In this document: in pieces, positions 1,976 to 18,980 of the stretch
Layout: every line of letters begins with the position of its first letter
Numbering within the stretch: position 1 is the stretch's first letter
Origin: Myxococcales bacterium
GTDB lineage: Bacteria > Myxococcota_A > Polyangia > Polyangiales > Polyangiaceae
Reading direction: 5' to 3'
Assembly (NCBI GenBank): GCA_012514535.1
Contig: JAAZAA010000056.1
Coordinates: 3,932 to 67,931, forward strand
Length of the DNA: 64,000 nucleotides
The notes under the pieces: generated by a model
Told to the model about the DNA's origin: nothing
Database searches by the model: none
Seen by the model: the letters and a program-made list of their open reading frames with translations, nothing else
Made by a program: the position numbers and the translations under genes

Positions 1976-1978
1976 TCC

Positions 1979-5773: not shown

Positions 5774-5803
5774 ACCTCGAGCTCCACTGTCCGGGGGCCG
5801 CTG

Positions 5804-5850
5804 TTTCGCGTTCTACCGGGGTTTCCAGAAAGTCGGAAAAGAACGCGAAA
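5804..5850. promoter_or_regulatory. Nested inverted repeat upstream of nirBD
   Basis: TTTCGCGTTCT (5804-5814) is the exact reverse complement of AGAACGCGAAA (5840-5850). The 25-nt spacer contains an inner TTTCC-N8-GGAAA repeat. It lies 31-77 nt upstream of the nirBD ATG. Confidence 0.5.
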
Positions 5851-5857
5851 TGGGCGC

Positions 5858-5891
5858 TGACCGGAAACACGGGGGCGCGCGTTTCCGGTCA
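5858..5891. promoter_or_regulatory. Perfect 11-bp inverted repeat upstream of nirBD
   Basis: TGACCGGAAAC (5858-5868) - N12 - GTTTCCGGTCA (5881-5891). A further GTTTCC copy lies at ~5897. Confidence 0.5.
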
Positions 5892-6148
5892 GTGACGGCG
5901 CGCCATGTTTCCACGAGGTGACCGGAGGCTGTCGAGTTTCGTCACGTCCTCCAGCGCCGGGCAGCCCCGCGGGTCGGCCACACGGGCCGCCGCAGAGCTC
6001 GACCGCACGGGCGTGCCGCCGGTGCCGGCCTGCAGGGGCCGCACAAGGTCCCGTGGTGCACGCGGGATTCCAGCGCACGGGATTCCAGCACGCGGGGTCG
6101 AGCGGACCGGATCGACCGCACTACCGCACGGACGCTCGCGTCAGGCGC

Positions 6149-6838
6149 TCACTGACCGCTCATGGCTCGTAGCGCCGGCAAGTCCTTGAGCGTGAACCCG
6201 TTCTCGTCGCCGCCCACGGTGCCCGACCGCTCCCAGCGCGTCATCACTCGGATCGCCGTCTCCGCGCTGGTGCTGACGAGCTCCGCGAGCTCCTGCCTCG
6301 ACAAGTGGATGGGGATGCCGCTGGACCCGTCCTCGAAGTCGTCGCCGAAGCGCTCGTACAGGTTGATGAGGAGATGCGCCAGGCGCGCTTCGACGGTGCC
6401 GGCGCTCAGCACGTCGATGCGCTGCAGGAGGTTCTCCACCTTCGTCTGCGCGTTGCGCACCAACGCGGCCGCCAGCTCGTTGCTCGTCTTCATCGCCTCG
6501 AGGATGCGGTCGCGCGGCACGAGCGCTACCTCGACGTGCGCCGTCACCGCGATCGCCGCCGCCGGGTAGACGACCCCCTTGAGCAAGGCCAGGTCGCCGA
6601 CGCTGTCCGGTGGTCCGAAGAGCCCGCAGATGACCGACCGACCTCCGGCCGTCGGTCGAACGACCTTGAGCACCCCGCGCCGGACGACCACGAAGTGCCG
6701 GGGCTGATCGCCGGCATCCCAGAGGCGCTCTCGCCTGGACAGGGAGCGCAGGGTCGTGACCTCCGCCAACGACGACAGGGTGGATGCATCAACACCCGCC
6801 AGGGCGGGAGTGCGTTTCAAGACCTCGAGGACACCCAT
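6149..6838 (-). CDS. Crp/Fnr-family transcriptional regulator (cNMP-binding-like domain + C-terminal HTH)
   Basis: 229 aa. Beta-roll effector domain (RERLWDAGDQPRHFVVVRRGVLKVV), dimerisation helix, HTH (LSRQELAELVSTSAETAIRVMTRWERSG). No N-terminal Cys cluster of true FNR. AAGGAG sits 7 nt upstream of the ATG. Confidence 0.85.
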   Translation of the reverse strand: MGVLEVLKRTPALAGVDASTLSSLAEVTTLRSLSRRERLWDAGDQPRHFVVVRRGVLKVVRPTAGGRSVICGLFGPPDSVGDLALLKGVVYPAAAIAVTAHVEVALVPRDRILEAMKTSNELAAALVRNAQTKVENLLQRIDVLSAGTVEARLAHLLINLYERFGDDFEDGSSGIPIHLSRQELAELVSTSAETAIRVMTRWERSGTVGGDENGFTLKDLPALRAMSGQ

Positions 6839-7007
6839 GAGAACTCCTTAAGCAAAAATCGTTCCGCAACTCCGAGAGGCCCCGACCGCCGCCGCGAGAT
6901 CGAACCCCTCGGGGGACGCCAGCCGAGGTGAGCGCCTCGGGAACTCCTGGAGAGGTGACGCGCGGATTTGCGCGGTGCCGGGGCGCTGGCGCAAACCTTG
7001 CGGCGGC

Positions 7008-7514
7008 TCAGCACAGCTCCAGAAAAAGCGCGTTCTCGCATGCCTCGTGCTTCCGGAACGCCGCATAGGCACGGGCGAAGGCGAGCTCGATGGTCCGGGG
7101 GCTCACCCGCGGATCCCCCACCATCCGACGGACCTCATCGAAGGCGTTCAGCAATACTGGGTGTTCGGCGTCCAGTCGGGCGAGGACCTCGAGCTGCTCG
7201 GAGTTTCTCTGAGAGCGCACCTCCGGGAAGGAGGTGGCCACCTCGACGGCGAAGTGGCTCTCCAGGAGGCTCACGAGCTCCCCGAGGAGCCGGGCGGCGT
7301 CCGCATGGCGGACCTTCGTCTCGGCCTCGTCCTCGACCTCGTCCGTGGCGACGCGCTCCTCGATGCGCTGCAGCAGCTCGAGCAGCCGGCGGTGCTGCAG
7401 GATCGCGTGCAAACCGTCTTCCGTCCCCATGGGCCAAGGTCTGCTGTCCGCCGGCGCCGACGCGGCGCCCAGCGGGTCGCTGTGGGTCACTGCGGATCTT
7501 GCTGTGCTGGCCAT
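7008..7514 (-). CDS. Hemerythrin (HHE cation-binding) domain protein, Hr-1
   Basis: His/Glu pattern LQHRRLLELL, LLESHFAVE, LDAEHPVLL, FRKHEACENALF. The ORF track extends to 7583. I prefer ATG 7514 (MASTARS...), which gives ~169 aa like the paralogs and sits 14 nt after a sigma-54-like -12 element. Start is uncertain. Confidence 0.7.
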   Translation of the reverse strand: MASTARSAVTHSDPLGAASAPADSRPWPMGTEDGLHAILQHRRLLELLQRIEERVATDEVEDEAETKVRHADAARLLGELVSLLESHFAVEVATSFPEVRSQRNSEQLEVLARLDAEHPVLLNAFDEVRRMVGDPRVSPRTIELAFARAYAAFRKHEACENALFLELC

Positions 7515-7526
7515 CGTCCGCCGTAA

Positions 7527-7542
7527 AGCACCTTTCATGCCA
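7527..7542 (-). promoter_or_regulatory. sigma-54-type -24/-12 promoter-like motif in front of Hr-1
   Basis: Minus strand reads cTGGCAT-GAAAG-GTGCTt. GG and GC have consensus spacing. ATG 7514 lies 14 nt after the -12 C (7528). Confidence 0.5.
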
Positions 7543-7624
7543 GCATCGCCTCCGAGGCTCTCACAGGGGAGCCCCTCGCGCACTGACGGACGTCAGGTCG
7601 ACGGCTGACGAGCATCAGAGCCCC

Positions 7625-7663
7625 GGATCTCGCGGCGCCGTAGGGTGAGGGGCGCCGCGATCC
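7625..7663. promoter_or_regulatory. Inverted repeat in divergent Hr-1 / DGC intergenic region
   Basis: GGATC(T)CGCGGCGCC - N11 - GGCGCCGCGATCC, 13-bp arms with one bulged T. It lies ~85-120 bp upstream of the Hr-1 -24 element, a typical enhancer (UAS) distance. Confidence 0.4.
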
Positions 7664-7687
7664 TGCGTCCCCTTCCCTGGTGCACCC

Positions 7688-8170
7688 ATGAGCACGACCC
7701 CGCCTCCCCTCGTGTATTCCTGTTCCGGCTGTTCCAGCGCTGCGCAGATGGCGAACCATCTCGCCCTCCAGCTCGACCGCCGCGGCGTGGCGGAGATGTC
7801 CTGCATCGCCGGCGTCGGCGGCGACGTGCCTCAGCTCGTGAACATCGCCCGCTCCGGGCGCCCCATCGTCGCCATCGACGGCTGTCCCCTGCGCTGCGTG
7901 GCCCACTCCCTCGCCCGGCACGGCCTGACCCCCCAGCGGCAGGTGACCCTCTCCGAGTTCGGGGTGCGCCGGAAGGCCCACGAGGACTTCGACCGTGCCG
8001 AGGCCGAGCGCCTCCTCGAGGCCCTCAGCGCCGAGCTGCGCGACGGGCTCACTCCGCGACCGGAGCCGCGCTCCGCTCCGCGGGCTCCGTCGGAGGGATC
8101 GCCCGGGTCGGGTTCGGGTGGGCTGGCGAGCGGGCTGGCGCCGTCCCCTGCAGCCCCAAGCGCCCGCTGA
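7688..8170 (+). CDS. DGC-domain putative zinc/iron-binding protein
   Basis: VYSCSGCSSAAQMANHLA...MSCIAGVGGDV...IVAIDGCPLRC matches my memory of the DGC family (CxxC, then the DGC motif). The C-terminal ~45 aa are low-complexity and overlap the convergent NrfD-like gene. Confidence 0.65.
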   Translation: MSTTPPPLVYSCSGCSSAAQMANHLALQLDRRGVAEMSCIAGVGGDVPQLVNIARSGRPIVAIDGCPLRCVAHSLARHGLTPQRQVTLSEFGVRRKAHEDFDRAEAERLLEALSAELRDGLTPRPEPRSAPRAPSEGSPGSGSGGLASGLAPSPAAPSAR

Positions 8171-9365
8171 GCACGGGCAGCGCGACCTTGATGGAGACGG
8201 TCAAGATCATCAGGCAGAGCGCCCAAATCCCGGCGGTGACGCGCCACTCGGTGAGACTCGGCGCGTACTCCACGAGCTCGTGCAGGGTGCTGGGCACGAA
8301 GCCCGGGACGATCAACCCCATCCCCTTTTCAATCCAGACGCCCACGAAGGCGAGCGCACACGCGACGTTCAAGACCAGCTTGCTCGTACGTGAGGCGGGC
8401 AGGTGGAGCAGCAGCGCCGAGGCGACGTTGAAGGCGACGGCGGACCAGATCCAGGGCACGAGGCCGTGTTTCCCGTGGGATCCGAAGAACAGGTACTTCG
8501 CGGCGGTGGCGTGAGCTCCGCCCGTATAGAAGGCGGTGAACAGCTCGGAGCCGAGCATGAACAGGTTCAGGAGCACGGTCACCCGCAGCACGGAGGCGAG
8601 CGTCCGGAGAGGACCATCGCCGATGTGGAAGTCCGAGTACCTGCGGACGACCTGCAGCAGGAGGATCACGAAGGCGGGCCCCGTGATGAAGGCCGACGCG
8701 ATGAAGCGCGGAGCGAGCAGCGCCGAGTTCCAGAAGGGGCGCCCGCCGAGCCCGCTGTAAAGGAACGCCGTGACGGTGTGGATCGAGACCGCCCAGAAGA
8801 TGGAGAGGAAGACGAAGGGGAGATACCAGCGCTTGGCCGGCTTGCGGCCGAGGAACCGCATGTAGAGCAGGTAGCCGGTGATGTGCAGGTTGAGCAGCAG
8901 ATAGCCGTTCAGCACGATCACGTCCCAGGTGAGCATCGAGATCGGCCAGTTGAAACGGCCGAGCCCGGGCAGCAGATGCCAGAACCTGTCGGGGCGTCCG
9001 AGATCCGCCAACACGAAGGCGAGGCACAGGGAGATCGCCGCGATCGCCAGCATCTCCCCGATCAGCACCACGGAGTGCATCTCGTGGTCGTCGTACAGGT
9101 AGGCGGGGATGACCATCATCACGGCGCCCGCCGCGAGGCCCACCCCGAAGGTAAAGTTGGCGATGTAGAGCCCCCAGGAGACGTGATCGCTCATCCCCGT
9201 GAGGCCCATCCCCTCGACCACCTGATGAGCCCACGCGTTCGCACCCACCAGGGCCACGGCCGTGAGCACCGTCATCCACGCGTAGAAGCGCCAGGTGCCC
9301 TCGAAGCCCAACTTGAAGAGCTGCCAGAGGAAGCGCGGGTAGGTAGCGGCGTGACTCGAGCCCAT
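8049..9365 (-). CDS. NrfD/PsrC-family polytopic membrane quinol-interacting subunit
   Basis: 438 aa with multiple hydrophobic helices. N-terminus (FLWQLFKLGFEGTWRFYAWMTVLTAVALVG...SWGLYIANFTFGVGLAAGAVMM) is typical of NrfD/HybB-type subunits. The ATG lies 4 nt after the FeS gene stop. Confidence 0.85.
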   Translation of the reverse strand: MGSSHAATYPRFLWQLFKLGFEGTWRFYAWMTVLTAVALVGANAWAHQVVEGMGLTGMSDHVSWGLYIANFTFGVGLAAGAVMMVIPAYLYDDHEMHSVVLIGEMLAIAAISLCLAFVLADLGRPDRFWHLLPGLGRFNWPISMLTWDVIVLNGYLLLNLHITGYLLYMRFLGRKPAKRWYLPFVFLSIFWAVSIHTVTAFLYSGLGGRPFWNSALLAPRFIASAFITGPAFVILLLQVVRRYSDFHIGDGPLRTLASVLRVTVLLNLFMLGSELFTAFYTGGAHATAAKYLFFGSHGKHGLVPWIWSAVAFNVASALLLHLPASRTSKLVLNVACALAFVGVWIEKGMGLIVPGFVPSTLHELVEYAPSLTEWRVTAGIWALCLMILTVSIKVALPVLSGRLGLQGTAPARSPAHPNPTRAIPPTEPAERSAAPVAE

Positions 9366-9369
9366 GGGA

Positions 9370-10272
9370 TCACTCGTCGAAGAAGTAGAAGAAGCGAGGG
9401 CGCGTTCCGAGCTCCTCCTTCAGCACGAACACGCGCTTGTTCTCGAGCACCCAGCGGATCTCGCTGTCCGGGTCGAGGAGGTTGCCGAAGACGCGCGCCC
9501 CCGTGGGGCACGCCTCGAGGCAGGCGGGGAGACGCCCTTCCCGGGTCCGATGCAGGCAGAACGTGCACTTCTCCACGACGCCCGCGGGGCGAATGCGGTT
9601 CGAGAGGTAGGCCTGGTCGGGGTTGATGTCCTCGGGGGCGAGCTCTGGCTTGTGCCAGTTGAAGCGCCGCGCGTGGTAGGGGCAAGCTGCCTCGCAGTAG
9701 CGACAGCCGATGCACCAGTTGTAGTCCACGACGACGATGCCGTCGGACTCCTTCCACGTGGCCTGCACGGGGCACACGTCCACGCAAGGAGGATTGTCAC
9801 ACTGCTGACACTGCACCGGCAGGTAGTACTTACCTGGCGCGGGCACCTCGTGGTCGTAGGTCGCGTTGCCCTGCTCCAGGTCGAAGGAGCCCTGATCCAT
9901 CTCGAGCACCCGGATGTACGAGTTGTTCGTCGCTCGATCGTGGTTGTTCTCCTCGTGGCAGGCCTCGGCGCAGCGGCGGCACCCGATGCACACGCTCAGG
10001 TTCAGCGCGTAACCGAACTGCACGTCCTCCATCGGGCGGACGTCGCGGATGTGGACGTCGCGCCCGTACTCGGCGGCCGTCTCCTCCTCCAGGCGCCTCA
10101 GCACCCGCTCCATCTCCTCCTTGTCGAGTTCGCGGTAGTGACGCTGGAGGAACTCGTCGAGGCTGAGGTCCCGCGCCCACTCCCGGAGCGGCGCCATGGC
10201 CTGCGCGAAGGCGCCGGCCCCCAACGTGGTGCCCACCACCTTCAGGGCGACACGTCGATTGACCTTAGTCAT
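9370..10272 (-). CDS. Tat-exported 4Fe-4S ferredoxin-type subunit (NrfC/HybA/PsrB-like)
   Basis: I chose internal ATG 10272, giving twin-arginine signal MTKVNRRVALKVVGTTLGAGAFAQA. Several CxxCxxCxxxC clusters (CIGCRRCAEAC, CQQCDNPPCVDVC, CIGCRYCEAAC, CTFCLHR). The ATG overlaps the upstream cytochrome stop by 8 nt (ATGACTAA). Confidence 0.85.
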   Translation of the reverse strand: MTKVNRRVALKVVGTTLGAGAFAQAMAPLREWARDLSLDEFLQRHYRELDKEEMERVLRRLEEETAAEYGRDVHIRDVRPMEDVQFGYALNLSVCIGCRRCAEACHEENNHDRATNNSYIRVLEMDQGSFDLEQGNATYDHEVPAPGKYYLPVQCQQCDNPPCVDVCPVQATWKESDGIVVVDYNWCIGCRYCEAACPYHARRFNWHKPELAPEDINPDQAYLSNRIRPAGVVEKCTFCLHRTREGRLPACLEACPTGARVFGNLLDPDSEIRWVLENKRVFVLKEELGTRPRFFYFFDE

Positions 10273-10879
10273 GGGGGGCCTCCGGGGCGTGCGTGGGCTC
10301 GGACAGGAAGCGATCGCGCGGCGGGTGCACCGGGTGGCCCCCCCGATACGCGGGCTCGTGAGGGTCGTGGCAATCGACGCAATGATTGCGGCGCCGCTCC
10401 CCCCGCGAGAGGTCCCAGTACCCGCGCATGCCGCCGTGGGATCCACGCCGGTAGTCGCGGGTCTGGGGGCCGTGGCACTGCGCGCAGAGCTGGAGCGCCT
10501 CGCTCCCGGGCAACACCTCTCCACTGGCGAGGCGCAGCTCGTGCGTCCGCTCGTCGTCGTGACAGGAGCTGCAGTGGAGCTCGCCGTGACGAACCGTCAG
10601 GCCAGCGTGGAACTCACGCAGCTCTCCGGCCGCATCGGGCAACGAGGTGGCGCTCCGCTGCGCGTGGCAGCTGACGCAGGCGACTCGACGGGGTCGCCCC
10701 AGAGCATCGAGCTGCCCGCTCGGCACGCCGCCGAGTCGGGAGCCGTCGATGATCACCCGCCCGCTGGGCAGGCCGGGAGCGGCTCCGAGCTCTTGCATGC
10801 GCGGAGCGTCGGGTCGGTTGCACGCCGCGGCGCAACCGATGAGGAAGAAGCAGAAGGGGAGCGAGACTCGTTGCGGCAC
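10265..10879 (-). CDS. Tetraheme c-type cytochrome, predicted lipoprotein
   Basis: Four CxxCH motifs (CVSCH, CSSCH, CAQCH, CVDCH). In-frame GTG 10879 gives (M)PQRVSLPFCFFLIGCAAAC, a lipoprotein-type signal. The longer ORF-track N-terminus is Arg-rich junk. Confidence 0.75.
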   Translation of the reverse strand: MPQRVSLPFCFFLIGCAAACNRPDAPRMQELGAAPGLPSGRVIIDGSRLGGVPSGQLDALGRPRRVACVSCHAQRSATSLPDAAGELREFHAGLTVRHGELHCSSCHDDERTHELRLASGEVLPGSEALQLCAQCHGPQTRDYRRGSHGGMRGYWDLSRGERRRNHCVDCHDPHEPAYRGGHPVHPPRDRFLSEPTHAPEAPHD

Positions 10880-10895
10880 CTGTAGGCGAGCGCTC

Positions 10896-10911
10896 TGCAG
10901 GGGACGTGCCA
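10896..10911 (-). promoter_or_regulatory. sigma-54-type -24/-12 promoter-like motif in front of the cytochrome c/FeS/NrfD operon
   Basis: Minus strand reads cTGGCAC-GTCCC-CTGCAg, one mismatch to TGGCAC-N5-TTGCA. GTG 10879 lies 18 nt after the -12 C. Confidence 0.55.
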
Positions 10912-10961
10912 GAAGCGCCCTCGACGTCGTCCTCCCTCCCGACGCAACCCCGGGGCGCGTC

Positions 10962-10973
10962 TGTCGATCGACA
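10962..10973. promoter_or_regulatory. Perfect 12-bp palindrome between divergent nap and cytochrome operons
   Basis: TGTCGATCGACA. It lies ~50 bp upstream of the cytochrome-operon -24 element and ~125 bp upstream of the napD -24 element. Confidence 0.4.
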
Positions 10974-11097
10974 CGGCCCGTGACGGTGTGAGGGGACGCG
11001 TCGATTTTTGCGGAGGTGGTCGGTGATGCGTGCAGCTTCTGCGGCGATGGTCCGACGTGACTCCGACAGTGCCGCCGTCTTCGCGCTCTCCGTGCCC

Positions 11098-11113
11098 TGG
11101 CGCGTGTCTTGCT
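11098..11113 (+). promoter_or_regulatory. sigma-54-type -24/-12 promoter-like motif in front of napD
   Basis: cTGGCGC-GTGTC-TTGCTt. napD ATG 11134 lies 22 nt after the -12 C. It shares the extended -12 string CTTGCTTGAG with the nnrS site. Confidence 0.55.
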
Positions 11114-11133
11114 TGAGGAGAACCGAATCTCCG

Positions 11134-11430
11134 ATGGCAATTAGCGGATTGGTCATCACCTTGGACGACGATCCAGAGCGCCGACGGGCGGCGCTCGCGG
11201 CTCTGCGCGCCGACGAGCGGCTGACCCTCGGAGAGCCCACGGGGAACCACCTCCCCCTGATCGCGGAGACGCGGCGGGCGCGCGAGGGCGTCGAGCTCAT
11301 CGAAGACCTGTTCACGCAGCCTGGCGTTCGGTTCGTCGACGTCGTCAGCGTGGACATGAGCGACGAGCTCGAGGACGGCGATCCAGCGTCCGCCGACTCC
11401 GTCGGGGACCCCAGCCACGAGGAAGGATGA
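11134..11430 (+). CDS. napD: NapD-like chaperone for periplasmic nitrate reductase
   Basis: Starts MAISGLVITLDDDPERR, comparable to the NapD core beta-strand (E. coli ...VCSLVVQA...). ~98 aa. Its stop overlaps the napA ATG (ATGA). The ORF-track start 11008 adds junk. Confidence 0.7.
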   Translation: MAISGLVITLDDDPERRRAALAALRADERLTLGEPTGNHLPLIAETRRAREGVELIEDLFTQPGVRFVDVVSVDMSDELEDGDPASADSVGDPSHEEG

Positions 11431-13838
11431 GGATGGAGCGGCGACAGTTCATCAAGAACGCGGCCATGGCGAGCGCGACGGTAGCCGCCACCCGACTGGC
11501 GCTGGGCAAGGATCCCCCGAAGCCGGACTCCCTCCCCCCCACCCCCGGCGTCACCTGGGACAAGGCGCCCTGTCGTTTCTGCGGCACCGGGTGTCACGTC
11601 CAGGTGGGCGTGAAGAACGGCAAGGTCGTGGCCATCGCCGGGGATCGCAAGGCGGAGGTCAACAAGGGGCTGCTCTGCGTGAAGGGCTATCACGTGGGGC
11701 TCGCCCTGTACGGCAAGGACCGCCTCACACGGCCGCTGCTGCGCAAGGGGGACCGCTTCGAGCCGATCGGCTGGGACCAGGCGCTCGAGATCGTCGCGCG
11801 GCGCATCTTCGACGATCCCGAGGGGTTCGCCATCTACGGCAGCGGGCAGTGGACCATCCCTGAGGGGTACGCCGCCCTCAAGCTCGTGAAGGCCGGCCTC
11901 GGCACGAACAACATCGATCCCAACGCGCGCCTGTGCATGGCCTCCGCCGTCACCGGCTTCTTGGCGACCTACGGCGTCGACGAGCCGGCGGGCTGCTACG
12001 ACGACCTCGACGAGTGCGACGTGCTCATCATGTGGGGAAACAACCCCGCAGAGATGCACCCGGTCCTGTTCTCGCGGGTCATCGACCGCCGCTCCCGGGG
12101 CGAGAAGGTGACCCTGATCGACATCGGGACCCGGCGCACCCGCACCTCCGAACACTGCCAGCACCACCTGCTCTTCAAGCCGCACACCGACATCGCCGTC
12201 GCGAACGGTATCCTCCACCTGCTCCTCGAGCGCGGGACCTACGATCGCGCCTTCGTGGAGAAGCACTGTCGCTTCCGGGCGGACAGCGATCCCGCGACGT
12301 TGCAGGGTAAGGAAATCGGGTTCGACGAGTTCAAGCGGAGGCTCGCGGAGTACACCCCCGAACGGGTTCAGCAAATCTCCGGCGTGTCGGCTCAGGACAT
12401 TCGCATGCTCGCCGACCTGTTCGGTCGGCGCGATCTGCGCATCACCAGCTTGTGGTGCATGGGCCCCAATCAGCACACGCGCGGTACTGCGATCAACACG
12501 CTCATCCACGCGGTCCACCTGCTCAGCGGACACTTCGGTCGTCCCGGGGACGCGCCGACCAGCCTCACCGGGCAGCCCTCCGCCTGCGGAACCGTGCGCG
12601 AGGTGGGCACCCTGGCCCACGCCCTCCCCGGCGGCCTCGTCGTGTCCCAAGCCGAAGATCGCAAGAAGGCGGAGAAGCTCTGGAACCTGCCGGAGGGGCG
12701 CGTTTCCGGGAAGCCCGGGCCGCACACCGTCGAGCTGTGGCGCCGCTTCTCCACCCCCAAGGACGAGGGCGGCACCATCAACACCGTCTGGGTGCAGGTG
12801 ACGAACCCCGCGCGCTCCCTGCCGAACGTCAACGAGCTGTTCGAGCCGAGTCGCCGCATCGACGGCAAGTTCCTCATCGTCTCCGACGTGTACCCCTCCG
12901 CCACCGCCCAGGCGGCGGACCTCATCCTGCCCTCGGCGATGTGGGTCGAGAAGAACGGCATGGTGGGCAACTCCGAGCGGCGCACCCAGCAATGGTTCCG
13001 CATGGTGAAGCCGCCAGGGGAGGCCCGGGACGACGCCTGGCAGCTCATCGCGGTGGCCCGCAAGCTCTACGAGCTCGGCCATCCGGGGATGAAGGACAAG
13101 GACGGGCGCTTCCTCTTCGCCATGGAGCAGGGGGGCGTCGAGGTGCCCGTGTGGGACTACCGCCACTACTACGACATCAACGTCGACTCACGGCTGTTCG
13201 AGGAGTACCGGACCTTCACGCGCTTCAAGCACAAGGATCTCGCCCCCTACGACGAGTACGTGAAGGCGCGGGGCCTCCGTTGGCCCGTGGTGGAGCAGCC
13301 CGACGGCACCTGGCGGGAGACCAAGTTCCGCTTCGCGGGCTTCGACGACCCCTACGTGAAGAAGGGACAGGAGTTCGACTTCTATCACTCCACCACCAAG
13401 GACGGCCGGGCGCAGATCTGGTTCCGGCCCTATCAGCCGCCGCCGGAGGTGCCCGACGCCGAGTATCCCTTCTGGCTGTGCACCGGGCGCGTGCTGGAGC
13501 ACTGGCACACGGGCACGATGACGATGCGCATCCCCCAGCTCCGGAGGGCGATGCCCCAGGCGTACGTCGAGCTGAACCCCGCAGACGCGAAGAAGCTGCG
13601 GGTGACCAGCGGCGACCTGGTGGTGCTCGAGTCGCGGCGCGGACAGCTCGAGTTGCCCGCGTGGATCGAGGGGCGCGGCGCGCCGCCGCCGGGGACCGTG
13701 TTCGTCCCGTTCTTCGACGAGTCGCTGCCCATCAACCGCGTGACCCTCGACGCCCACGACCCCTTCTCCAAGCAGCCGGACTACAAGAAATGCGCCGTGC
13801 GCGTCCGCAGGAGCGCCCGCCGCATCGCACGCCCATGA
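11427..13838 (+). CDS. napA: Periplasmic nitrate reductase catalytic subunit NapA (Mo-bisMGD, 4Fe-4S)
   Basis: Tat signal MRMERRQFIKNAAMASATVAATRLALG. N-terminal cluster CRFCGTGCHV...LCVKGY. Long colinear similarity to NapA as remembered (ANGILHLL, FWLCTGRVLEHWHTGTMT, FVPFFDE). Confidence 0.95.
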   Translation: MRMERRQFIKNAAMASATVAATRLALGKDPPKPDSLPPTPGVTWDKAPCRFCGTGCHVQVGVKNGKVVAIAGDRKAEVNKGLLCVKGYHVGLALYGKDRLTRPLLRKGDRFEPIGWDQALEIVARRIFDDPEGFAIYGSGQWTIPEGYAALKLVKAGLGTNNIDPNARLCMASAVTGFLATYGVDEPAGCYDDLDECDVLIMWGNNPAEMHPVLFSRVIDRRSRGEKVTLIDIGTRRTRTSEHCQHHLLFKPHTDIAVANGILHLLLERGTYDRAFVEKHCRFRADSDPATLQGKEIGFDEFKRRLAEYTPERVQQISGVSAQDIRMLADLFGRRDLRITSLWCMGPNQHTRGTAINTLIHAVHLLSGHFGRPGDAPTSLTGQPSACGTVREVGTLAHALPGGLVVSQAEDRKKAEKLWNLPEGRVSGKPGPHTVELWRRFSTPKDEGGTINTVWVQVTNPARSLPNVNELFEPSRRIDGKFLIVSDVYPSATAQAADLILPSAMWVEKNGMVGNSERRTQQWFRMVKPPGEARDDAWQLIAVARKLYELGHPGMKDKDGRFLFAMEQGGVEVPVWDYRHYYDINVDSRLFEEYRTFTRFKHKDLAPYDEYVKARGLRWPVVEQPDGTWRETKFRFAGFDDPYVKKGQEFDFYHSTTKDGRAQIWFRPYQPPPEVPDAEYPFWLCTGRVLEHWHTGTMTMRIPQLRRAMPQAYVELNPADAKKLRVTSGDLVVLESRRGQLELPAWIEGRGAPPPGTVFVPFFDESLPINRVTLDAHDPFSKQPDYKKCAVRVRRSARRIARP

Positions 13839-14590
13839 GCACTCCCGCCCCCGAACCCTCCGACGTCCTCCGCCACCGCATCTGGCACGTTGTGGGTGCG
13901 GTGGCCGTCGGCGTCGCGGCCGCCGGATTCCTGGCGGGCGTCGCGGGCCCCCCCGAGCGCGCGACGCCTCCTCGAGGAGAGGCGCCCGCCACGGAGGGCC
14001 CCGCCGTCCGCCGCTACTCCGAGATGGGCTCCGAACCGCGCGGTCCGAACGCGAACCTGTACGAGCGCGGCACCTCGGTCCTCGCGGTCGAGCGGGACCC
14101 CTACGCGGTCGTGGAGCGCACGGACGCCGAGCGCGCGGCTGCCCTCCGCGCCCGGGACGCGCGACGGGCCTACGACGGCGCGCCTCCCACGATCCCGCAT
14201 CCCATCGATCAGCGCCGGGCGCCGGACTGCTTGGCGTGCCACGGAGCGGCGGTCCAGATCGACGGCAAGATCGCCCCGACGATGAGCCATCCCCGCTACG
14301 ACAGCTGCACCCAGTGTCACGTCGTGGCCGCCGATCCACGCCCCGGCGGCGCGGCCCCGGAGGGAGTGGCCAACACCTTCGTGGGGACCTCGTCGGAGAA
14401 CCCGGGAGCGCGCGCGTGGCCAGGAGCTCCCCCGACGATCCCCCACGCGACGTCCATGCGCACGGACTGCCTGAGCTGCCACGGCTCCTTGGGGCGCGTG
14501 GGACTGCGCACGAGCCACCCCTGGCGCCAGAGCTGCACCCAGTGCCACGCCCCCTCCGCGGAGCTCGATCAGCGCGGACCAACCCCGTAG
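13835..14590 (+). CDS. napB: NapB-type cytochrome c with two tandem NapB modules (four CxxCH)
   Basis: The ATG overlaps the napA stop (ATGA). N-terminal TM/signal anchor HVVGAVAVGVAAAGFLAGVAG. Module 1 is GAPPTIPH...DCLACHG...MSHP...SCTQCH. Module 2 is GAPPTIPH...DCLSCHG...TSHP...SCTQCH. Confidence 0.8.
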   Translation: MSTPAPEPSDVLRHRIWHVVGAVAVGVAAAGFLAGVAGPPERATPPRGEAPATEGPAVRRYSEMGSEPRGPNANLYERGTSVLAVERDPYAVVERTDAERAAALRARDARRAYDGAPPTIPHPIDQRRAPDCLACHGAAVQIDGKIAPTMSHPRYDSCTQCHVVAADPRPGGAAPEGVANTFVGTSSENPGARAWPGAPPTIPHATSMRTDCLSCHGSLGRVGLRTSHPWRQSCTQCHAPSAELDQRGPTP

Positions 14591-14603
14591 GACCACCCCG
14601 CTC

Positions 14604-14993
14604 ATGTCCCTCCCGCGCCTCGACGTGCCTACGGCGGCCGCGCCAACCGAACCCTCCGCGCGCGCCGTCGACCCCTCTCCCGCAGGGGAGCCCCCCTTGC
14701 CGCCCCTGCAGACCGCGATCCTCGACGAGGCGACCCTCGAACGCCTCTTCCGCGAGATCGCCGCCCTCCCTAGGGCTCCCGAGGTGATCGTGAAGTGGGC
14801 TCCTCGGGAGCACACCCCCGACGCACGCACGTCGCTGGCCGAGGCCCGTGACGCGCTCGGCGATGGCCGCGCCTTCGGGCTGCAGCTCCGGTATCTCCTC
14901 GACGGCTCCCTCTGGTTCGACACCCTGATGCGAGTGGAGGGGGGCGTGCGGCTGGTGCGCATCGCCCATCCCCTGCCGCCATCGTCGAGCTGA
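14604..14993 (+). CDS. Hypothetical protein, last gene of nap operon
   Basis: 129-aa ORF 13 nt after napB. No Cys, no TM segment, no motif I recognise. Codon usage looks coding. Confidence 0.45.
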   Translation: MSLPRLDVPTAAAPTEPSARAVDPSPAGEPPLPPLQTAILDEATLERLFREIAALPRAPEVIVKWAPREHTPDARTSLAEARDALGDGRAFGLQLRYLLDGSLWFDTLMRVEGGVRLVRIAHPLPPSSS

Positions 14994-15094
14994 CGTGCGC
15001 GCAAGGTCGGCGTGACACCGCGGGTCGAGCGGGGCGCCGACGCCGATTCTGCGTGGAGGGCCTACGCCCTTGGCCCCGGGGACCCGCCGTTCCT

Positions 15095-15110
15095 CGGCAT
15101 ACCCCTTGCT
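15095..15110 (+). promoter_or_regulatory. sigma-54-type -24/-12 promoter-like motif in front of nnrS
   Basis: CGGCAT-ACCCC-TTGCTt followed by GAGAGAGATC and in-frame GTG 15122, 13 nt after the -12 C. Confidence 0.5.
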
Positions 15111-15121
15111 TGAGAGAGATC

Positions 15122-16348
15122 GTGAGCTTCGTTTCCTTGCGACTGCCGAGCAGTGAGCAGCCCTCCGCCGCCCCGAACCTCGCCCGCGCGGGCGCCGTCT
15201 TGGGCCGCATGGGGTTTCGCCCGTTCTTCCTGCTGGCTGCGCTGTTCTCCGCGGTGGCCATCCCCCTGTGGGTGCTCGCGCTGCAGGGGCGAGTGCAGCT
15301 CCGGGTTCCAGGAGGTGCTCTGTTTTGGCACACGCACGAGATGGTCTTCGGCTACACGGTCGCCGTGATCGCCGGCTTCTTGCTGACGGCCGTCACCCGC
15401 TGGACCGATCGAAGCACCGCGACCGGCGGACTCCTCTACGCCCTCGCGGGGGTCTGGATCCTGGGACGTGTCGCCGTGCTGCTCGCCGGACACCTGCCGG
15501 GCACCCTCGTCGCCGTGGTGGACCTGTCGTTCCTCCCGCTCGTCGCCTGGGCCATCGGCAGACCCATCTACGCGTCGCGCAACCGTCGCAACTACGCGAT
15601 GGTCGGGATCCTGGTCGGACTGGGGGGAGCCAACCTGGCGGTGCACCTGGACAGCCTCGGGGTCGCGCCCGGTGGGGCCCCCTGGGGGCTCCGCCTGGGG
15701 CTCAATCTGATCACCCTGATGATGCTCATCATCGGCGCGCGGGTGATTCCGATGTTCACTCGGAACGCAGTGGGCGACTCGAGGATCCAATCCGCGCGTA
15801 GCTGGGACGTGGCGACCGCGCTGGGCGCCGTCGCCCTCACGGTCGCCGACGTCGTCGCTGCGCCCGCCCCCATCCAGGCCGCGCTCGGCGGGGGAACGGC
15901 GCTGGTGGCGCTGGTGGCGGCGCGGCGCTGGGGAACGCGCGCGAGCCTCCGTAACCCGATGCTGTGGGTGCTCCACTTCGGCTACTTCTGGATCCCCATC
16001 GCGCTCCTGCTGCGGGCCGCGCACTTCGCCGGACTGCCCGTCGCTCACAGCACGGCGGTGCACGCCCTCACCGCGGGCGCCATCGGCACGCTCACCTTGG
16101 GCATGATGGCGCGGGTCACCCTCGGTCATAGCGGGCGCATCATCACGACGTCCCCGCTGACCACGGCGTGCTTCGCCGCGATCACGGCGGCGGCCCTCCT
16201 CCGGGTGACCGTTCCGGAGCTGGCGCCTCCCCTCACGGCCCACGCGTGGCTCTGCGCGGGCATCGCCTGGACGCTCGCCTTCCTCGGCTACGCGGTGCGC
16301 TTTGGTCCGATGCTGCTCAGTCCTCGCGTCGACGGGAAGGCTGGATGA
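15122..16348 (+). CDS. nnrS: NnrS-family heme/copper membrane protein (NO-stress associated)
   Basis: GFRPFFLLAALFSAVAIPLWV...HTHEMVFGYTVAVIAGFLLTAV with ~12 TM helices. I prefer GTG 15122, which leaves ~29 aa before GFRPFF as in other NnrS proteins. The ORF track starts at 15053. Confidence 0.85.
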   Translation: MSFVSLRLPSSEQPSAAPNLARAGAVLGRMGFRPFFLLAALFSAVAIPLWVLALQGRVQLRVPGGALFWHTHEMVFGYTVAVIAGFLLTAVTRWTDRSTATGGLLYALAGVWILGRVAVLLAGHLPGTLVAVVDLSFLPLVAWAIGRPIYASRNRRNYAMVGILVGLGGANLAVHLDSLGVAPGGAPWGLRLGLNLITLMMLIIGARVIPMFTRNAVGDSRIQSARSWDVATALGAVALTVADVVAAPAPIQAALGGGTALVALVAARRWGTRASLRNPMLWVLHFGYFWIPIALLLRAAHFAGLPVAHSTAVHALTAGAIGTLTLGMMARVTLGHSGRIITTSPLTTACFAAITAAALLRVTVPELAPPLTAHAWLCAGIAWTLAFLGYAVRFGPMLLSPRVDGKAG

Positions 16349-16351
16349 ACC

Positions 16352-17434
16352 ATGAAGTCCCACGACGACCACCCCTTCATCGCCATCTGGGAGACGACCC
16401 AGGCCTGCGATCTGAGCTGCAAACACTGCCGCGCCGAGGCGCGCCCGGAGCGCGACGCCGGTGAGCTCGACACCGCCGAGGGGAAGCGGCTCCTCGAGTC
16501 CTTCGCCGCGGCGCGGGTGCCGCTGGTCGTGCTGACGGGCGGCGATCCCGCCAAGCGCCCCGACCTCGTCGAGCTGGTGGCCTACGGTCACTCCCTCGGC
16601 CTGGCCATGGGGCTCACCCCCTCCGCCACCCCCCTGGTGACCCCCGAGCTCGTCGGCGACCTCGCGCGGGCGGGGCTCGCGCGCCTCGCCATCAGCATCG
16701 ACGGACCGAACGCCGAGATCCACGACTCCTTCCGGGGCATGGCCGGCGGCTTCGACTGCGCCCTGTCGATCCTGGAGGCGGCCCGGCGCCACTCCCTGCC
16801 GACGCAGATCAACACCTCGATCTACACGAGCAACCAGGGCTGCCTGCCGGAGCTCGTGGGCTTCGTCCGGCAGCAGCGCTGCACCCTCTGGAGCGTGTTC
16901 TTCGTCGTCCCCACCGGCCGCGCCAGCTGGCGCATGGAGCTGTCCGACGACGAGGTGGAGGCGGCGCTCGAGCTGCTGGCGGACGCCGCGGAGCGTGAGC
17001 CCTTCGCCATCAAGACGACCGCGGCGCCCCAGTATCGCCGCCTGTTGCTGCAGCGGGGTCGGGGCAAGTCCCACGGGGCCCGCGGGATCGCCGGGCTCGA
17101 CGTGAACGAGGGGCGCGGCTTCATGTTCGTCTCCCACCGGGGCGACGTGTTCCCGAGTGGCTTCCTCCCCGTCGCTTGCGGCAACGTTCGCCACACCGAT
17201 CCCGTGACCATCTACCGTGAGAGCCCGGTGTTCCGGTCGCTCCGCGATCCCGGCGCCCTCCAAGGCAAGTGCGGCGTATGTCAGTACAAGAAGGTGTGCG
17301 GCGGCTCACGGGCGCGCGCCTACGCCCACTCGGGCAACGTGCTCGCCTCCGATCCCGCCTGCGCCTACGTCCCCCCCGGCTACGTGGGGCCCCCTCCGAG
17401 CGCGCGTCCGCGCAGGCTCGAGGTGCTCGCATGA
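16352..17434 (+). CDS. Radical SAM / SPASM-domain enzyme (NirJ/AhbD-like)
   Basis: CX3CX2C motif in IWETTQACDLSCKHCRAE. GGDP SAM-binding strand. C-terminal SPASM Cys motif GKCGVCQYKKVCGGSRARAY...DPACAY. The start lies 4 nt after the nnrS stop. Confidence 0.85.
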   Translation: MKSHDDHPFIAIWETTQACDLSCKHCRAEARPERDAGELDTAEGKRLLESFAAARVPLVVLTGGDPAKRPDLVELVAYGHSLGLAMGLTPSATPLVTPELVGDLARAGLARLAISIDGPNAEIHDSFRGMAGGFDCALSILEAARRHSLPTQINTSIYTSNQGCLPELVGFVRQQRCTLWSVFFVVPTGRASWRMELSDDEVEAALELLADAAEREPFAIKTTAAPQYRRLLLQRGRGKSHGARGIAGLDVNEGRGFMFVSHRGDVFPSGFLPVACGNVRHTDPVTIYRESPVFRSLRDPGALQGKCGVCQYKKVCGGSRARAYAHSGNVLASDPACAYVPPGYVGPPPSARPRRLEVLA

Positions 17435-17486
17435 CTCTCCTCGCGGTCTCGCCGCCAGCACCTCTGCAGTGAAGGAACTCTCTCGA

Positions 17487-18941: not shown

Positions 18942-18957
18942 GCGCTCGAACTCCAGC

Positions 18958-18980
18958 GCCCAGCCCCCTAAGCGCTGGGC
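18958..18980. terminator. Hairpin after the nnrS operon
   Basis: GCCCAGC (18958-18964), 9-nt loop, GCTGGGC (18974-18980), 17 nt after the stop codon. No U-tract. Confidence 0.35.

Follow-up and report, generated by a model that had tools for sequence, protein, structure and literature searches.

How do electrons leave the quinol pool for a periplasmic nitrate reductase (Nap) whose gene cluster carries neither of the two accepted quinol dehydrogenases of this system, NapC and NapGH? The question is raised by a locus in 64,000 nucleotides of DNA, the whole of which is hereinafter called the window, from a myxobacterium of soil and compost. The nap genes of this locus, napD, napA, a NapB-like gene and a small open reading frame (ORF), lie on one strand; on the other strand, across a control region of 254 bp (10880-11133), lies a trio of genes for a lipoprotein tetrahaem cytochrome c, a Tat-exported iron-sulfur (FeS) protein and a membrane subunit of the NrfD family (Table 1). 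The original prediction made for this DNA held that the trio fits a quinol:cytochrome c oxidoreductase able to feed NapB, and this idea is supported by the linkage of the trio to nap, by the homology of its subunits to DsrO and DsrP, and by the promoters of the two operons. On the basis of synteny and homology we consider it likely, at a probability of roughly 0.7, that the trio replaces NapC and NapGH, and that Nap is here served by a third kind of quinol dehydrogenase.

The predicted ORFs of the trio and of napD, napA and napB were all found where they had been placed, and the tight coupling claimed for their junctions is borne out: the cytochrome gene shares 8 nt with the FeS gene, which in turn is parted by 4 nt from that of the NrfD-family subunit, and the napD/napA and napA/napB junctions are ATGA overlaps. 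The reading of the remaining nap genes needed revision. The gene taken for napB is present at 13835-14590, but encodes a single 251-aa tetrahaem protein with two NapB repeats (the double NapB), and the orphan ORF assigned to the nap operon exists and is conserved, but lies at 14604-14993, beyond position 14590, where the operon had been said to end.

Table 1. Features of the nap locus and of the divergent trio, in positions of the window
Feature	Position	Strand	Evidence or sequence
NrfD-family subunit gene	8049..9365	-	Pfam NrfD and NCBIfam DsrP
Tat-exported FeS subunit gene	9370..10272	-	NCBIfam DsrO score, RR motif, 16 Cys
Lipoprotein tetrahaem cytochrome c gene	10265..10879	-	4 CXXCH, lipobox Cys20, GTG start
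Sigma-54-type -24/-12 element, trio operon	10896..10911	-	TGGCACGTCCCCTGCA
Perfect palindrome	10962..10973		TGTCGATCGACA
Sigma-54-type -24/-12 element, nap operon	11098..11113	+	TGGCGCGTGTCTTGCT
napD, divergent	11134..11430	+	31-orthologue profile matching E. coli NapD
napA	11427..13838	+	NapA structures, ligand conservation
Double NapB gene	13835..14590	+	Pfam NapB, internal repeat, TM anchor
Conserved small ORF, last of the nap cluster	14604..14993	+	Detected in 60/80 loci

The identity of the trio was approached through family models, solved structures and conservation. The NrfD-family subunit, 438 aa long and with some 10 TM helices in the hydropathy profile, matches Pfam NrfD with 134 bits and exceeds the cut-off of the NCBIfam DsrP model (NF045798; 423 bits, cut-off 350), scoring low with the NCBIfam models for NrfD (21; cut-off 348) and QrcD (48 bits; cut-off 570). 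It is 35% identical to the DsrPh of Ca. Electrothrix (E=8e-72), its best solved structures are ActC chains, weakly matched (E=2e-10), and 145 of its positions are at least 97% conserved among 61 orthologues. It is thus a homologue of DsrP, and we propose it as the menaquinol-oxidising subunit. The FeS subunit (300 aa) bears the twin-arginine motif NRRVALK, which is kept in 80 homologues together with 16 cysteines, implying four [4Fe-4S] clusters. It comes within 3 bits of the NCBIfam DsrO cut-off (197 against 200), with 164 bits for QrcC and 126 for NrfC (cut-off 378); T. thermophilus PsrB (2VPW_B) is its best solved match, and Electrothrix DsrOh is 48% identical to it (E=1e-99). A homologue of DsrO, it is predicted to be Tat-exported and periplasmic.

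The cytochrome is a protein of 204 aa with a GTG start and four CXXCH motifs. Its lipobox Cys20 is invariant in 41 sequences, as are His91, His98, His148 and His174, and all four haems are probably bis-His ligated. Pfam returns generic multihaem matches only, the NCBIfam NrfB model gives 28 bits (cut-off 184) and the AF2 model is poor (pLDDT 63). A tetrahaem protein of Electrothrix is 32% identical over haems 2-4 (E=8e-14). We propose this lipoprotein as the electron exit of the module.

These affinities shift the comparison made in the original prediction, which had likened the module to NrfBCD or the core of alternative complex III (ACIII): the closest relatives by sequence are DsrO and DsrP. 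The trio combines homologues of both with a probably bis-His tetrahaem cytochrome, away from dsrMK, and in this it agrees with the DsrOhPh-tetrahaem (DsrOhPhCyt) loci, which have been reported from cable bacteria and from certain Desulfobulbales, Gammaproteobacteria and Betaproteobacteria (PMC13047784, 2026). The Electrothrix complex has the same three types of subunit, all three homologous to those of the trio; its cytochrome likewise has four haems, all His/His ligated, and its locus is likewise unattached to DsrMK. The differences are that the Electrothrix order is TMH1-DsrOh-DsrPh-cytochrome, whereas in the window the cytochrome is encoded first and TMH1, a small protein confined to cable bacteria (PMC13047784), is absent; that the Electrothrix cytochrome has 328 aa as against the 204-aa lipoprotein; and that the Electrothrix locus has no nap gene closer than 6 kb, whereas the window module is linked to nap. 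The DsrOhPhCyt locus was formerly called 'candidate alternative complex III', and its physiological function is given as unknown (PMC13047784); a 2026 cryo-EM preprint on DsrMKJOP states the same of DsrOhPh-tetrahaem complexes.

By sequence, DsrMKJOP is the closest characterised point of reference, in that one window subunit passes the DsrP model (423/350) and another nearly passes that of DsrO (197/200); among the relatives, the DsrP of an Archaeoglobales dsrC-dsrOPMKJ cluster falls in a sequence cluster with a 43% identical representative. According to the cryo-EM preprint, menadiol sits in DsrP at most 8 A from a DsrO cluster, menaquinol is oxidised at DsrP, and electrons leave via DsrO to the cytochrome DsrJ. 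By inference from this analogy, oxidation of quinol at the P subunit and exit via the O subunit to a c-type cytochrome might be shared between DsrJOP and the trio. The trio is nevertheless distinct from DsrMKJOP, which is recognised by DsrO and DsrP encoded along with the NarI-like DsrM, the HdrD-like DsrK and the trihaem DsrJ in a genome with dsrAB and dsrC: DsrM, DsrK, DsrC and DsrAB were found neither in the window nor in the related loci; DsrJ has three haems, one of them Cys-ligated, against four, probably bis-His, in the window cytochrome; and the electron sink of DsrMKJOP is the cytoplasmic DsrC, whereas that proposed here is a periplasmic molybdoenzyme.

Other modules built around NrfD-family proteins are more remote. 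NrfBCD, which serves as quinol dehydrogenase for cytochrome c nitrite reductase of the E. coli type, follows a similar logic, passing electrons from a cofactor-free NrfD through an FeS subunit exported by Tat and then a small multihaem cytochrome to a periplasmic N-oxide reductase. An assignment of the trio to NrfBCD was rejected on the scores (NrfD 21/348, NrfC 126/378, NrfB 28/184), and no NrfA is encoded in the window; moreover, NrfB is pentahaem and soluble whereas the window cytochrome is a tetrahaem lipoprotein, and NrfD has 8 helices (NrfD-family review) as against about 10. Like the trio, ACIII (ActABCDEF) and Qrc (QrcABCD) are built from quinone-reactive subunits of the NrfD family, multihaem cytochromes and an FeS wire. 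ACIII, however, comprises an ActB of about 1000 aa in which an FeS and a molybdopterin-like domain are fused, the NrfD-like ActC and ActF, the pentahaem ActA and the monohaem ActE; the trio, which has no ActA or ActE, was not accepted as ACIII, its FeS subunit being of 300 aa without a molybdopterin-like domain, its NrfD-like gene single and its cytochrome tetrahaem. Qrc was rejected on the QrcD score and the lack of a QrcB-like subunit. Cbc4 (CbcSTU) of Geobacter sulfurreducens has the same published composition as the trio and is likened to it by description: the CbcS preprint lists a membrane-associated cytochrome whose four haems are all bis-His, together with a 4x[4Fe-4S] protein and an integral membrane subunit, and proposes a menaquinol:cytochrome c oxidoreductase. 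CbcS differs in having a TM-helix anchor and a NapC/NirT-like haem core, and its partners are periplasmic Ppc cytochromes for metal reduction.

The nap side of the locus encodes a recognisable reductase with an unusual small subunit. The 98-aa NapD matched no Pfam model as a single sequence, even at E=10 and including Pfam NapD, but a profile of 31 orthologues has as its top matches E. coli NapD (2JSX, 2PQ4; E=1e-5, full length). NapD proteins are small (around 90 aa), cytoplasmic, of ferredoxin-type fold and encoded next to napA, and the window gene overlaps the start of napA. NapA (803 aa) scores 895 bits with the NCBIfam model, just below the cut-off of 904. It is similar over its full length to known structures, has an RR signal (RRQFIK) and keeps in 70 sequences the [4Fe-4S] ligands Cys49/52/56/84 and the Mo ligand Cys170 (RLCMASA). 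The top-ranking structures are all of NapA, namely those from C. necator (3ML1, 729 bits), E. coli (2NYA, 717) and R. sphaeroides (1OGY, 694), with the monomeric NapA of D. desulfuricans ranking lower (538 bits); by these similarities, the window NapA is predicted to be of the type that pairs with NapB.

Canonical NapB is a soluble dihaem protein of about 150 aa with a PPxIPH motif and bis-His ligation, whereas the window version comprises, within one 251-aa ORF, two tandem NapB-like dihaem repeats with four haems in all, 49% identical to each other (E=3e-18), and an N-terminal hydrophobic TM segment (residues 15-40). This segment probably remains uncleaved as a membrane anchor, and between it and the first haem domain runs a linker of about 70 residues with little conservation. 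Repeat 1 reaches 50 bits with Pfam NapB (cut-off 25) and the protein as a whole 16 bits with NCBIfam NapB (cut-off 230); it aligns with C. necator NapB, contains the PPTIPH motif twice, and keeps four CXXCH motifs and four distal histidines in 68 sequences. Among the matches listed, all but one of 120 homologues measure about 240-300 aa. The small downstream ORF encodes a conserved cytoplasmic protein of 129 aa, with no Pfam match at E=10; AF2 models it with confidence (pLDDT 81, over 90 in the core), and no fold in the PDB matches the model significantly. The cluster shares with canonical Nap a NapAB-type NapA, NapD and haem domains of NapB fold; it differs in that the canonical systems have NapC or NapGH, whereas here neither is present, NapB is duplicated and anchored, and a DsrOP-like trio is attached. 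A 2026 Nap review distinguishes four operon types only: napEDABC, napDAGHB, napCMADGH and napAGHBFLD.

The claimed lack of NapC and of a NapG/NapH pair holds for the 64-kb window in motif and Pfam scans. We looked for NapC/NirT as an N-terminal TM helix with a tetrahaem domain matching PF03264 (Cytochrom_NNT) or NapC models, and for NapGH as a Tat-exported, four-cluster NapG with a 4-TM NapH bearing two cytoplasmic [4Fe-4S] motifs. The only ORFs in the window with at least two CXXCH or at least two ferredoxin motifs are those of the FeS protein, the cytochrome and the double NapB, and Pfam scans of the other large ORFs retrieved no NapC/NirT, NapG or NapH. Neither the lipoprotein cytochrome nor the double NapB matches PF03264 at E<=0.01; weak matches at E<=0.1 were obtained for 29 of 41 cytochrome homologues (best E=2.9e-5). 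No NapC or NapGH was found within flanks of up to 10 kb of 80 related loci either, where the extra FeS ORFs are NapF-like ferredoxins (NapF being present in about half of the loci), along with a few unrelated multihaem ORFs.

The original prediction had called for a gene-neighbourhood survey, and here the outcome is clear: the trio stands beside nap wherever the contig reaches. Our set consisted of the 80 closest species-representative genomes, all Myxococcota save for two MAGs labelled otherwise, and covered Sorangium (So ce56 among them), Archangium, Myxococcus, Pyxidicoccus, Kofleriaceae, Haliangiales, Sandaracinus and Bradymonadales. The trio adjoins nap in 78 of the loci; in the remaining two the contig stops at napD and there is no NapA match. 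In most loci the two sets of genes diverge, and six loci (L053, L056, L061, L069, L075, L076) have them co-directional; since the trio is beside nap in both arrangements, the adjacency has survived rearrangement. The outer flanks vary, with NnrS at about 13 loci, Crp at about 9 and NirBD at 2, and no other periplasmic reductase is conserved near the trio. Within the clade of at least 65% identity the trio was never found apart from nap in the 80 species examined. Nap is missing beside relatives of 35-51% identity, among them the DsrOhPhCyt complex of cable bacteria, which stand alone or accompany multihaem or porin-cytochrome clusters; such distant trios indicate that the module is not intrinsically Nap-specific. 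One distant trio adjoins tatAC and a menaquinone-biosynthesis operon, which counts in favour of the module as a quinol dehydrogenase.

The control region points in the same direction. A sigma-54 promoter has GG at -24 and GC at -12, a fixed distance apart (TGGCAC-N5-TTGCW), and depends on RpoN and an enhancer-binding protein; the sequence motif was found on both strands, as had been predicted, and its position is conserved over orthologous loci. The element TGGCACGTCCCCTGCA ends 16 nt before the GTG start of the cytochrome gene and TGGCGCGTGTCTTGCT ends 20 nt before the napD start. Of 62 loci, 37 have a -24/-12 motif 8-40 nt away from the napD start and 42 have one at this distance from the cytochrome start (about 0.2 in shuffles for either). 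This conservation on both sides of the control region supports co-regulation of the two operons. The window also contains a gene for an enhancer-binding protein (23708-24712). The role suggested for the palindrome TGTCGATCGACA as a shared control element did not survive comparison: it sits between the two sigma-54-like sites and occurs once in the window, but none of the 61 other intergenic regions contains it, not even that of the closest relative (L002), and a perfect 12-nt palindrome arises in about 10% of shuffles of the control region, with 52 such palindromes in the whole window. As judged from these comparisons, nothing supports a regulatory role for it. In the only 'transcriptomic' runs in which the locus is present, its coverage is flat and DNA-like.

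From the gene content, cofactor motifs, homologies, conserved linkage and conserved promoter motifs observed here, we infer a route for the electrons, including its direction and order, the type of quinone and the physical contacts among the tetrahaem cytochrome, the double NapB and NapA. Menaquinol would be oxidised at a periplasm-facing site of the cofactor-free NrfD-family subunit, and the electrons would then cross the four [4Fe-4S] clusters of the DsrO homologue and the lipoprotein cytochrome with its four, probably bis-His, haems. From there they would pass to the membrane-anchored, four-haem double NapB and on to the [4Fe-4S] cluster and Mo-bisMGD site of NapA, where nitrate would be reduced to nitrite in the periplasm. 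NapD would mature NapA as the chaperone of its Tat signal, the small downstream protein may be an accessory factor, and the back-to-back sigma-54 promoters would drive both operons with very short leaders.

Several other accounts have to be weighed against this dedicated route. The trio might instead act as a 'mini alternative complex III', a general quinol:cytochrome c oxidoreductase for several periplasmic acceptors with Nap as one client, placed next to nap by shared regulation. The distant trios beside many different cytochromes or alone, the former name of the homologous cable-bacterial locus, and another small cytochrome c encoded in the window (30848-31384) would all suit such an enzyme; yet we regard it as unlikely, in view of the clade in which the trio keeps to nap even after reordering, the lack of any other periplasmic reductase conserved nearby, and the same unusual promoter type on both operons. 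That linkage (78/80, the rest cut at napD) and the common promoter type also make it distinctly unlikely that the donor of Nap is encoded elsewhere, be it NapC, NapGH, bc1/Qcr or ACIII acting via a soluble cytochrome, with the trio working, for example, as a Qrc-like cytochrome c:menaquinone reductase. A napC, napGH, bc1 or ACIII outside the 64-kb window could be the real donor under this account. In its favour, Nap of Campylobacter jejuni is coupled with Qcr, a menaquinol-cytochrome c reductase (PMC6195509), and NrfD-type modules can reduce quinone, as PMC6303296 describes for Qrc; an ActA-like pentahaem ORF also lies near one locus (L067). A Qrc-like function in particular is at odds with the 48 bits obtained where QrcD requires 570 and with the missing QrcB-like subunit, and the nearest characterised relative, DsrP, oxidises quinol according to the cryo-EM preprint.

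It is, finally, conceivable that the double NapB is itself the quinol oxidase, an analogue of NapC or CymA that renders the trio dispensable for Nap. Its layout of one N-terminal TM segment and four c-haems in about 250 aa does recall NapC/NirT, but its two NapB repeats, Pfam NapB match and PPTIPH motifs, with no match to Cytochrom_NNT, place it elsewhere. Its four haems all have conserved distal histidines, whereas haem I of the NapC/NirT-type oxidases NrfH and CymA is high-spin and non-bis-His according to the CbcS preprint, and the poorly conserved linker holds the anchor apart from the haem domain. We consider this account highly improbable, and retain the trio as the probable donor of Nap.

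A further extension, which we offer as a speculation with little chance of proving right, is that the DsrOP-like module couples menaquinol oxidation to charge translocation via a conserved polar network of the 10-helix subunit. Periplasmic nitrate reduction by Nap would then conserve energy directly in Myxococcota, and the widespread DsrOhPhCyt trios would form a family of electrogenic quinol:cytochrome c oxidoreductases plugging into different terminal reductases.

If the trio does serve Nap, the implications would be several. Nap would be the first concrete physiological partner for DsrOhPh-tetrahaem complexes, and nitrate reduction in myxobacteria would provide a read-out for their function. 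The label 'DsrP', a name from sulfate reduction which the NCBI pipeline gives to the Sorangium orthologue, can mislead genome and metagenome surveys into reporting sulfur cycling when applied to myxobacterial proteins. Soil metagenome work has assigned much napA and nirB to Sorangium; models of nitrate reduction in soil based on NapC and NapGH may therefore miss a large share of environmental Nap. A third dedicated donor would add a branch to the two accepted for Nap, conserved in 80 or more species of one of the major phyla of soil, and the choice between NapC/NapGH and the trio would parallel that between NrfH and NrfBCD in nitrite reductase.

The three minus-strand genes facing the nap cluster (window G+C about 70%) encode a tetrahaem cytochrome, an FeS protein and an NrfD-family membrane protein. 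They form the tightly coupled module that the original prediction had described, with an overlap of 8 nt between the cytochrome and FeS genes and a gap of 4 nt between the FeS and NrfD genes. In public gene calls, the identical cytochrome (P0121) begins at an internal methionine, giving a product of 177 aa from which the lipoprotein signal peptide is lost; the GTG start at 10879 restores the lipobox, whose cysteine is invariant in 41 homologues. An AF2 model of the cytochrome, built with a 41-sequence alignment, reached a pLDDT of 63.5, and a Foldseek search against the PDB returned no match (best E about 5). Convergent with the NrfD gene is a plus-strand gene for a DGC-domain protein (7688-8170; PF08859, 118 bits), and about 120 nt of its ORF overlap the NrfD gene, in the non-conserved 3' tail of the latter. 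A minus-strand ORF downstream of the NrfD gene (7535-7981), considered as a TMH1-like partner, proved spurious, the true gene there being that of the plus-strand DGC-domain protein.

Features of the module, the nap cluster and their surroundings in the window
Feature	Position	Strand	Remarks
HemD-like/NirB/NirD fusion	1979-5773	-	1264 aa; FAD/NAD, BFD, sirohaem NIR_SIR, C-terminal NirD Rieske-like
Crp/Fnr	6149-6838		
Hemerythrin gene	7008-7583		
NrfD-family membrane protein	8049-9365	-	438 aa, about ten hydrophobic segments
FeS protein	9370-10272	-	300 aa, twin-arginine signal, four ferredoxin-type Cys groups
Tetrahaem cytochrome c	10265-10879	-	204 aa, GTG start, lipoprotein signal ending LIGC, four CXXCH
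napD	11134-11430	+	profile of 31 orthologues
napA	11427-13838	+	NapAB type
NapB-like gene	13835-14590	+	251 aa, two repeats
Small ORF	14604-14993	+	129 aa
NnrS	15053-16348		
MoaA	19012-20040		
Multicopper oxidase	20817-22358		three-domain
ScdA/RIC-type di-iron gene	22884-23825	-	just upstream of activator, opposite strand
Sigma-54 enhancer-binding protein (activator)	23708-24712	+	AAA+ and HTH_8 domains only, no sensor domain
Hemerythrin-domain gene	24713-25267	+	directly after activator gene
Hemerythrin gene	28593-29372		

The module had been likened to NrfBCD or to ACIII, and this part of the prediction was not borne out. Against the NCBIfam models, the membrane subunit scores 423 bits with the DsrP equivalog (cut-off 350) and the FeS subunit falls just short with DsrO (197 versus a cut-off of 200), whereas scores with the Nrf, Qrc, Psr, Ttr and Arr models are much lower; on these scores and the subunit composition, an assignment to NrfBCD, ACIII or Qrc was rejected. 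In the PDB, ActC chains were the only matches of the membrane subunit, and weak ones, and the best match of the FeS subunit was PsrB. A HMMER scan of 1.8 billion cluster representatives recovered 295 clusters at E<=1e-30. Among them is an Archaeoglobales protein with 43% identity, a member of whose cluster sits in a genuine dsrC-dsrO-dsrP-dsrM-dsrK-dsrJ cluster; a further one, with 35% identity, is the 'DsrPh' of the cable bacterium Ca. Electrothrix, whose locus has the order TMH1-DsrOh-DsrPh-tetrahaem. Compared with the trio in the window, the Electrothrix proteins are 48% (FeS), 35% (membrane subunit) and 32% (cytochrome, over haems 2-4) identical. A comparative genomic study of 2026 (PMC13047784) described this DsrOhPh-tetrahaem locus as encoding a complex apart from DsrMKJ, of unknown function and found in some organisms without sulfur metabolism, and proposed that it transfers quinol electrons to cytochromes in the periplasm. 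The cryo-EM structure of DsrMKJOP, reported in a 2026 preprint, shows menadiol bound in DsrP close to the periplasmic side, no more than 8 A from a DsrO cluster; the preprint concludes that quinol is oxidised at DsrP, with electrons passing via DsrO to the cytochrome, and describes the physiological role of the 'DsrOhPhCyt' complexes as unknown. The Geobacter Cbc4 complex (CbcSTU), likened here by its published description alone, has a composition identical to that of the trio.

On the plus strand, ATGA overlaps join napD to napA and napA to the NapB-like gene. NapD is too divergent for a Pfam match; with a profile of 31 orthologues, the two best PDB matches are both E. coli NapD, over the full length, at E=1e-5. 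NapA is, by homology, of the NapAB type: its nearest solved structures are those from C. necator, E. coli and R. sphaeroides, and the monomeric D. desulfuricans enzyme ranks behind them. Conservation extends to its Tat signal, FeS cysteines and Mo-ligand cysteine. The operon had been described as napD-napA-napB plus one orphan ORF; these genes are indeed present, but the NapB is a 251-aa tandem-repeat protein ('double NapB') and not the classical 150-aa dihaem form. Its hydrophobic segment at residues 15-40 is probably an uncleaved membrane anchor, since a proline follows the only plausible cleavage site. Beyond the anchor lie two NapB-like repeats, 49% identical to one another (E=3e-18), each with a PPTIPH motif and two CXXCH motifs. 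The first repeat matches the Pfam NapB model and aligns to C. necator NapB, and the four haem motifs and four further histidines are kept in 68 orthologues. Almost all of the best 120 homologues are about 240-300 aa long, and the double NapB is therefore the norm for the clade. Its reading as a NapC analogue was rejected because the protein consists of NapB repeats. For the small ORF product, a confident single-sequence AF2 model (pLDDT 81) has the fold beta-alpha-beta-beta-alpha-beta3, whose best PDB match is not significant (E=0.035, TM about 0.3); Gln94, Tyr97, Asp106, Thr107 and Arg119 are the sole near-invariant residues of this protein, which may represent an uncharacterised Nap accessory family.

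A neighbourhood survey searched a single genome from each GTDB species for the membrane subunit and found a relative in at least 516 species, of which the best 80 (65-93% identity) were examined by tblastn with the window's proteins in flanks of up to 10 kb. Nearly all of these 80 carry the label Myxococcota or an older deltaproteobacterial name for that lineage, and include Sorangium (with So ce56), Archangium, Myxococcus, Pyxidicoccus, Kofleriaceae, Haliangiales, Sandaracinus, Persicimonas, Lujinxingia and Bradymonadales; a Pirellulaceae label is attached to one MAG and a 'Proteobacteria' label to another, and two carry no label beyond 'bacterium'. Complete genomes with the cluster include those of Sorangium cellulosum So ce56 (NC_010162), Archangium gephyra (NZ_CP102578) and Archangium minus (NZ_CP043494), along with several Sorangium sp. 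chromosomes, and Sorangium, Archangium and Pyxidicoccus are culturable carriers. All 80 loci have the trio of cytochrome, FeS and NrfD genes together, except that the contig of L069 ends within the FeS gene and does not reach the cytochrome gene. NapA adjoins the trio in 78, and in the other two the contigs end at napD. Most loci have the divergent order, and six (L053, L056, L061, L069, L075 and L076) are co-directional, with the module followed by napDAB. The outer neighbours vary, such that the NnrS, Crp and NirBD genes flanking the cluster in the window recur in few of the 80 loci. About half of the loci (about 38/80) have a gene for a NapF-like ferredoxin between the NapB-like gene and the small ORF, for example at 4212-4784 of the Sorangium sp. 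So ce315 locus (L001). The N-terminus of this ferredoxin is of the RR type and the protein carries an RPPGA motif; neither the window nor L002, the closest relative of the window, has the gene. The co-directional set of L076 also has, immediately upstream of the tetrahaem gene, an extra gene (150-1154) for a TM-anchored pentahaem cytochrome, which may be an additional electron-input or electron-output subunit.

A NapC- or NapGH-like gene was found in the flanks (up to 10 kb) of none of the 80 loci. Within the 64-kb window, a six-frame motif scan detected no other ORF with at least two CXXCH or at least two ferredoxin motifs, and Pfam scans of the remaining large ORFs detected no NapC/NirT, NapG, NapH, DsrM or DsrK, in agreement with the claim that the locus lacks NapC and NapG/NapH.

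More distant relatives of the membrane subunit, at 35-51% identity, have small cytochrome and FeS genes alongside without nap, and their contexts are varied: 1) the trio alone, or two trios in tandem. 2) Trios inside multihaem or porin-cytochrome clusters. 3) A trio beside a sigma-54 two-component pair. 4) An NrfD-CBS fusion with a flavoprotein, lacking the cytochrome and FeS genes. 5) In a 39% identical relative (P0396), a trio between tatA-tatC and a menaquinone-biosynthesis operon with polyprenyl synthase, MenF-, MenD-, UbiE-, MenC- and MenE-like genes, which ties the module family to menaquinone. As such relatives retain the cytochrome and FeS genes in varied non-nap contexts, the trio appears to be a portable quinone-reactive module, whose Nap-linked form makes up a separate clade with high conservation.

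The prediction had also placed sigma-54-like promoters on both operons, flanking a palindrome, as a sign of co-regulation. The promoter motifs stand: both sites in the 254-bp control region (10880-11133) fit TGGCAC-N5-TTGCW with one mismatch each, and are two of just five such sites in 64 kb (0.8 expected). In 62 divergent control regions, motifs with the GG and GC cores, at most two mismatches and a distance of 8-40 nt from the start codon are positionally conserved on the napD side in 37 and on the cytochrome side in 42, compared with about 0.2 in shuffles. They mostly lie 11-16 nt from the start codon, which implies very short leaders or true starts slightly different from those assigned. 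Some control regions span only 42-90 bp, too short to accommodate an upstream activator site in the stretch separating the promoters. The palindrome TGTCGATCGACA, however, occurs once in the window and in none of the other loci, the closest relative included, and about 10% of shuffles of the control region hold a perfect 12-nt palindrome; being neither conserved nor improbable by chance, it was rejected as an operator. The central part of the control region (11000-11060, about 60 nt, GTCGATTTTTGCGGAGGTGGTC...GCAGCTTCTGCGGCGA) is almost the same in the window and in L002 amid diverged surroundings; it could serve as a binding site for an activator or IHF, or just reflect recent common ancestry. 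Judged from its domains and neighbours, the sigma-54 activator looks like a candidate regulator, in an NO- or O2-sensing pair that could drive the nap and module promoters about 9 kb away. Two compost runs labelled TRANSCRIPTOMIC (X7 and X12) were uninformative on expression; they behave like genomic DNA, with flat depth over the whole of positions 1-20000 and contigs of up to 30 kb.

The best-supported model, to which we assign a probability of roughly 0.7, is that electrons pass from menaquinol through the trio and the double NapB to NapA. The DsrP-like subunit would oxidise menaquinol, and the electrons would travel through the four clusters of the DsrO-like protein and the four haems of the lipoprotein cytochrome to the anchored four-haem double NapB, and from there to NapA for periplasmic nitrate reduction. 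If, as in DsrP, the protons of quinol leave on the periplasmic side, then, with nitrate reduction using periplasmic protons, this step would not be electrogenic by itself; the most novel possibility, an unlikely one, is a pumping role for the NrfD-type subunit.

A quinol:cytochrome c oxidoreductase feeding Nap, as originally proposed, is thus favoured by linkage, promoter motifs and DsrP homology. The trio might instead be a general enzyme of this kind with several clients, which we consider unlikely in view of its strict linkage to nap and the promoters common to both operons. Somewhat less probable still is that the genes for the true Nap donor lie elsewhere and that the trio has another function or operates in reverse; the same linkage argues against this, as does the fact that the nearest characterised homologue oxidises quinol. 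That the double NapB is itself the quinol oxidase seems very improbable given its NapB-type repeats.

By gene content, the nap cluster and module sit within an N-oxide island. Farther along the window, a single minus-strand ORF of about 3,890 aa (35396-47056) consists largely of TPR repeats. The source organism is common in compost, manure and soil metagenomes, and soil surveys have attributed much napA and nirB to Sorangium. The parts of the system are already known, namely Nap, the DsrOP-like modules and the module family itself, named in 2026. Neither a Nap-dedicated DsrOP-like/NrfD module in Myxococcota nor a tandem four-haem NapB is described in the Nap review, which distinguishes four operon types, in the NrfD-family review, or in the literature found by targeted searches. 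In public annotation, the Sorangium orthologue goes under 'DsrP', and the cytochrome is either 'hypothetical' or a 'nitrite reductase cytochrome c552 subunit'. The full name given to the myxobacterial NrfD-like protein by NCBI's annotation pipeline, for the So ce315 orthologue (P0019; L001 10001-11278) as in other NCBI records, is 'sulfate reduction electron transfer complex DsrMKJOP subunit DsrP', yet the gene belongs to a nap cluster and no dsrMK lies within roughly 10 kb either side. The 'DsrP' label on the myxobacterial NrfD-like proteins is a systematic mis-naming, which could seed false sulfur-cycle calls.
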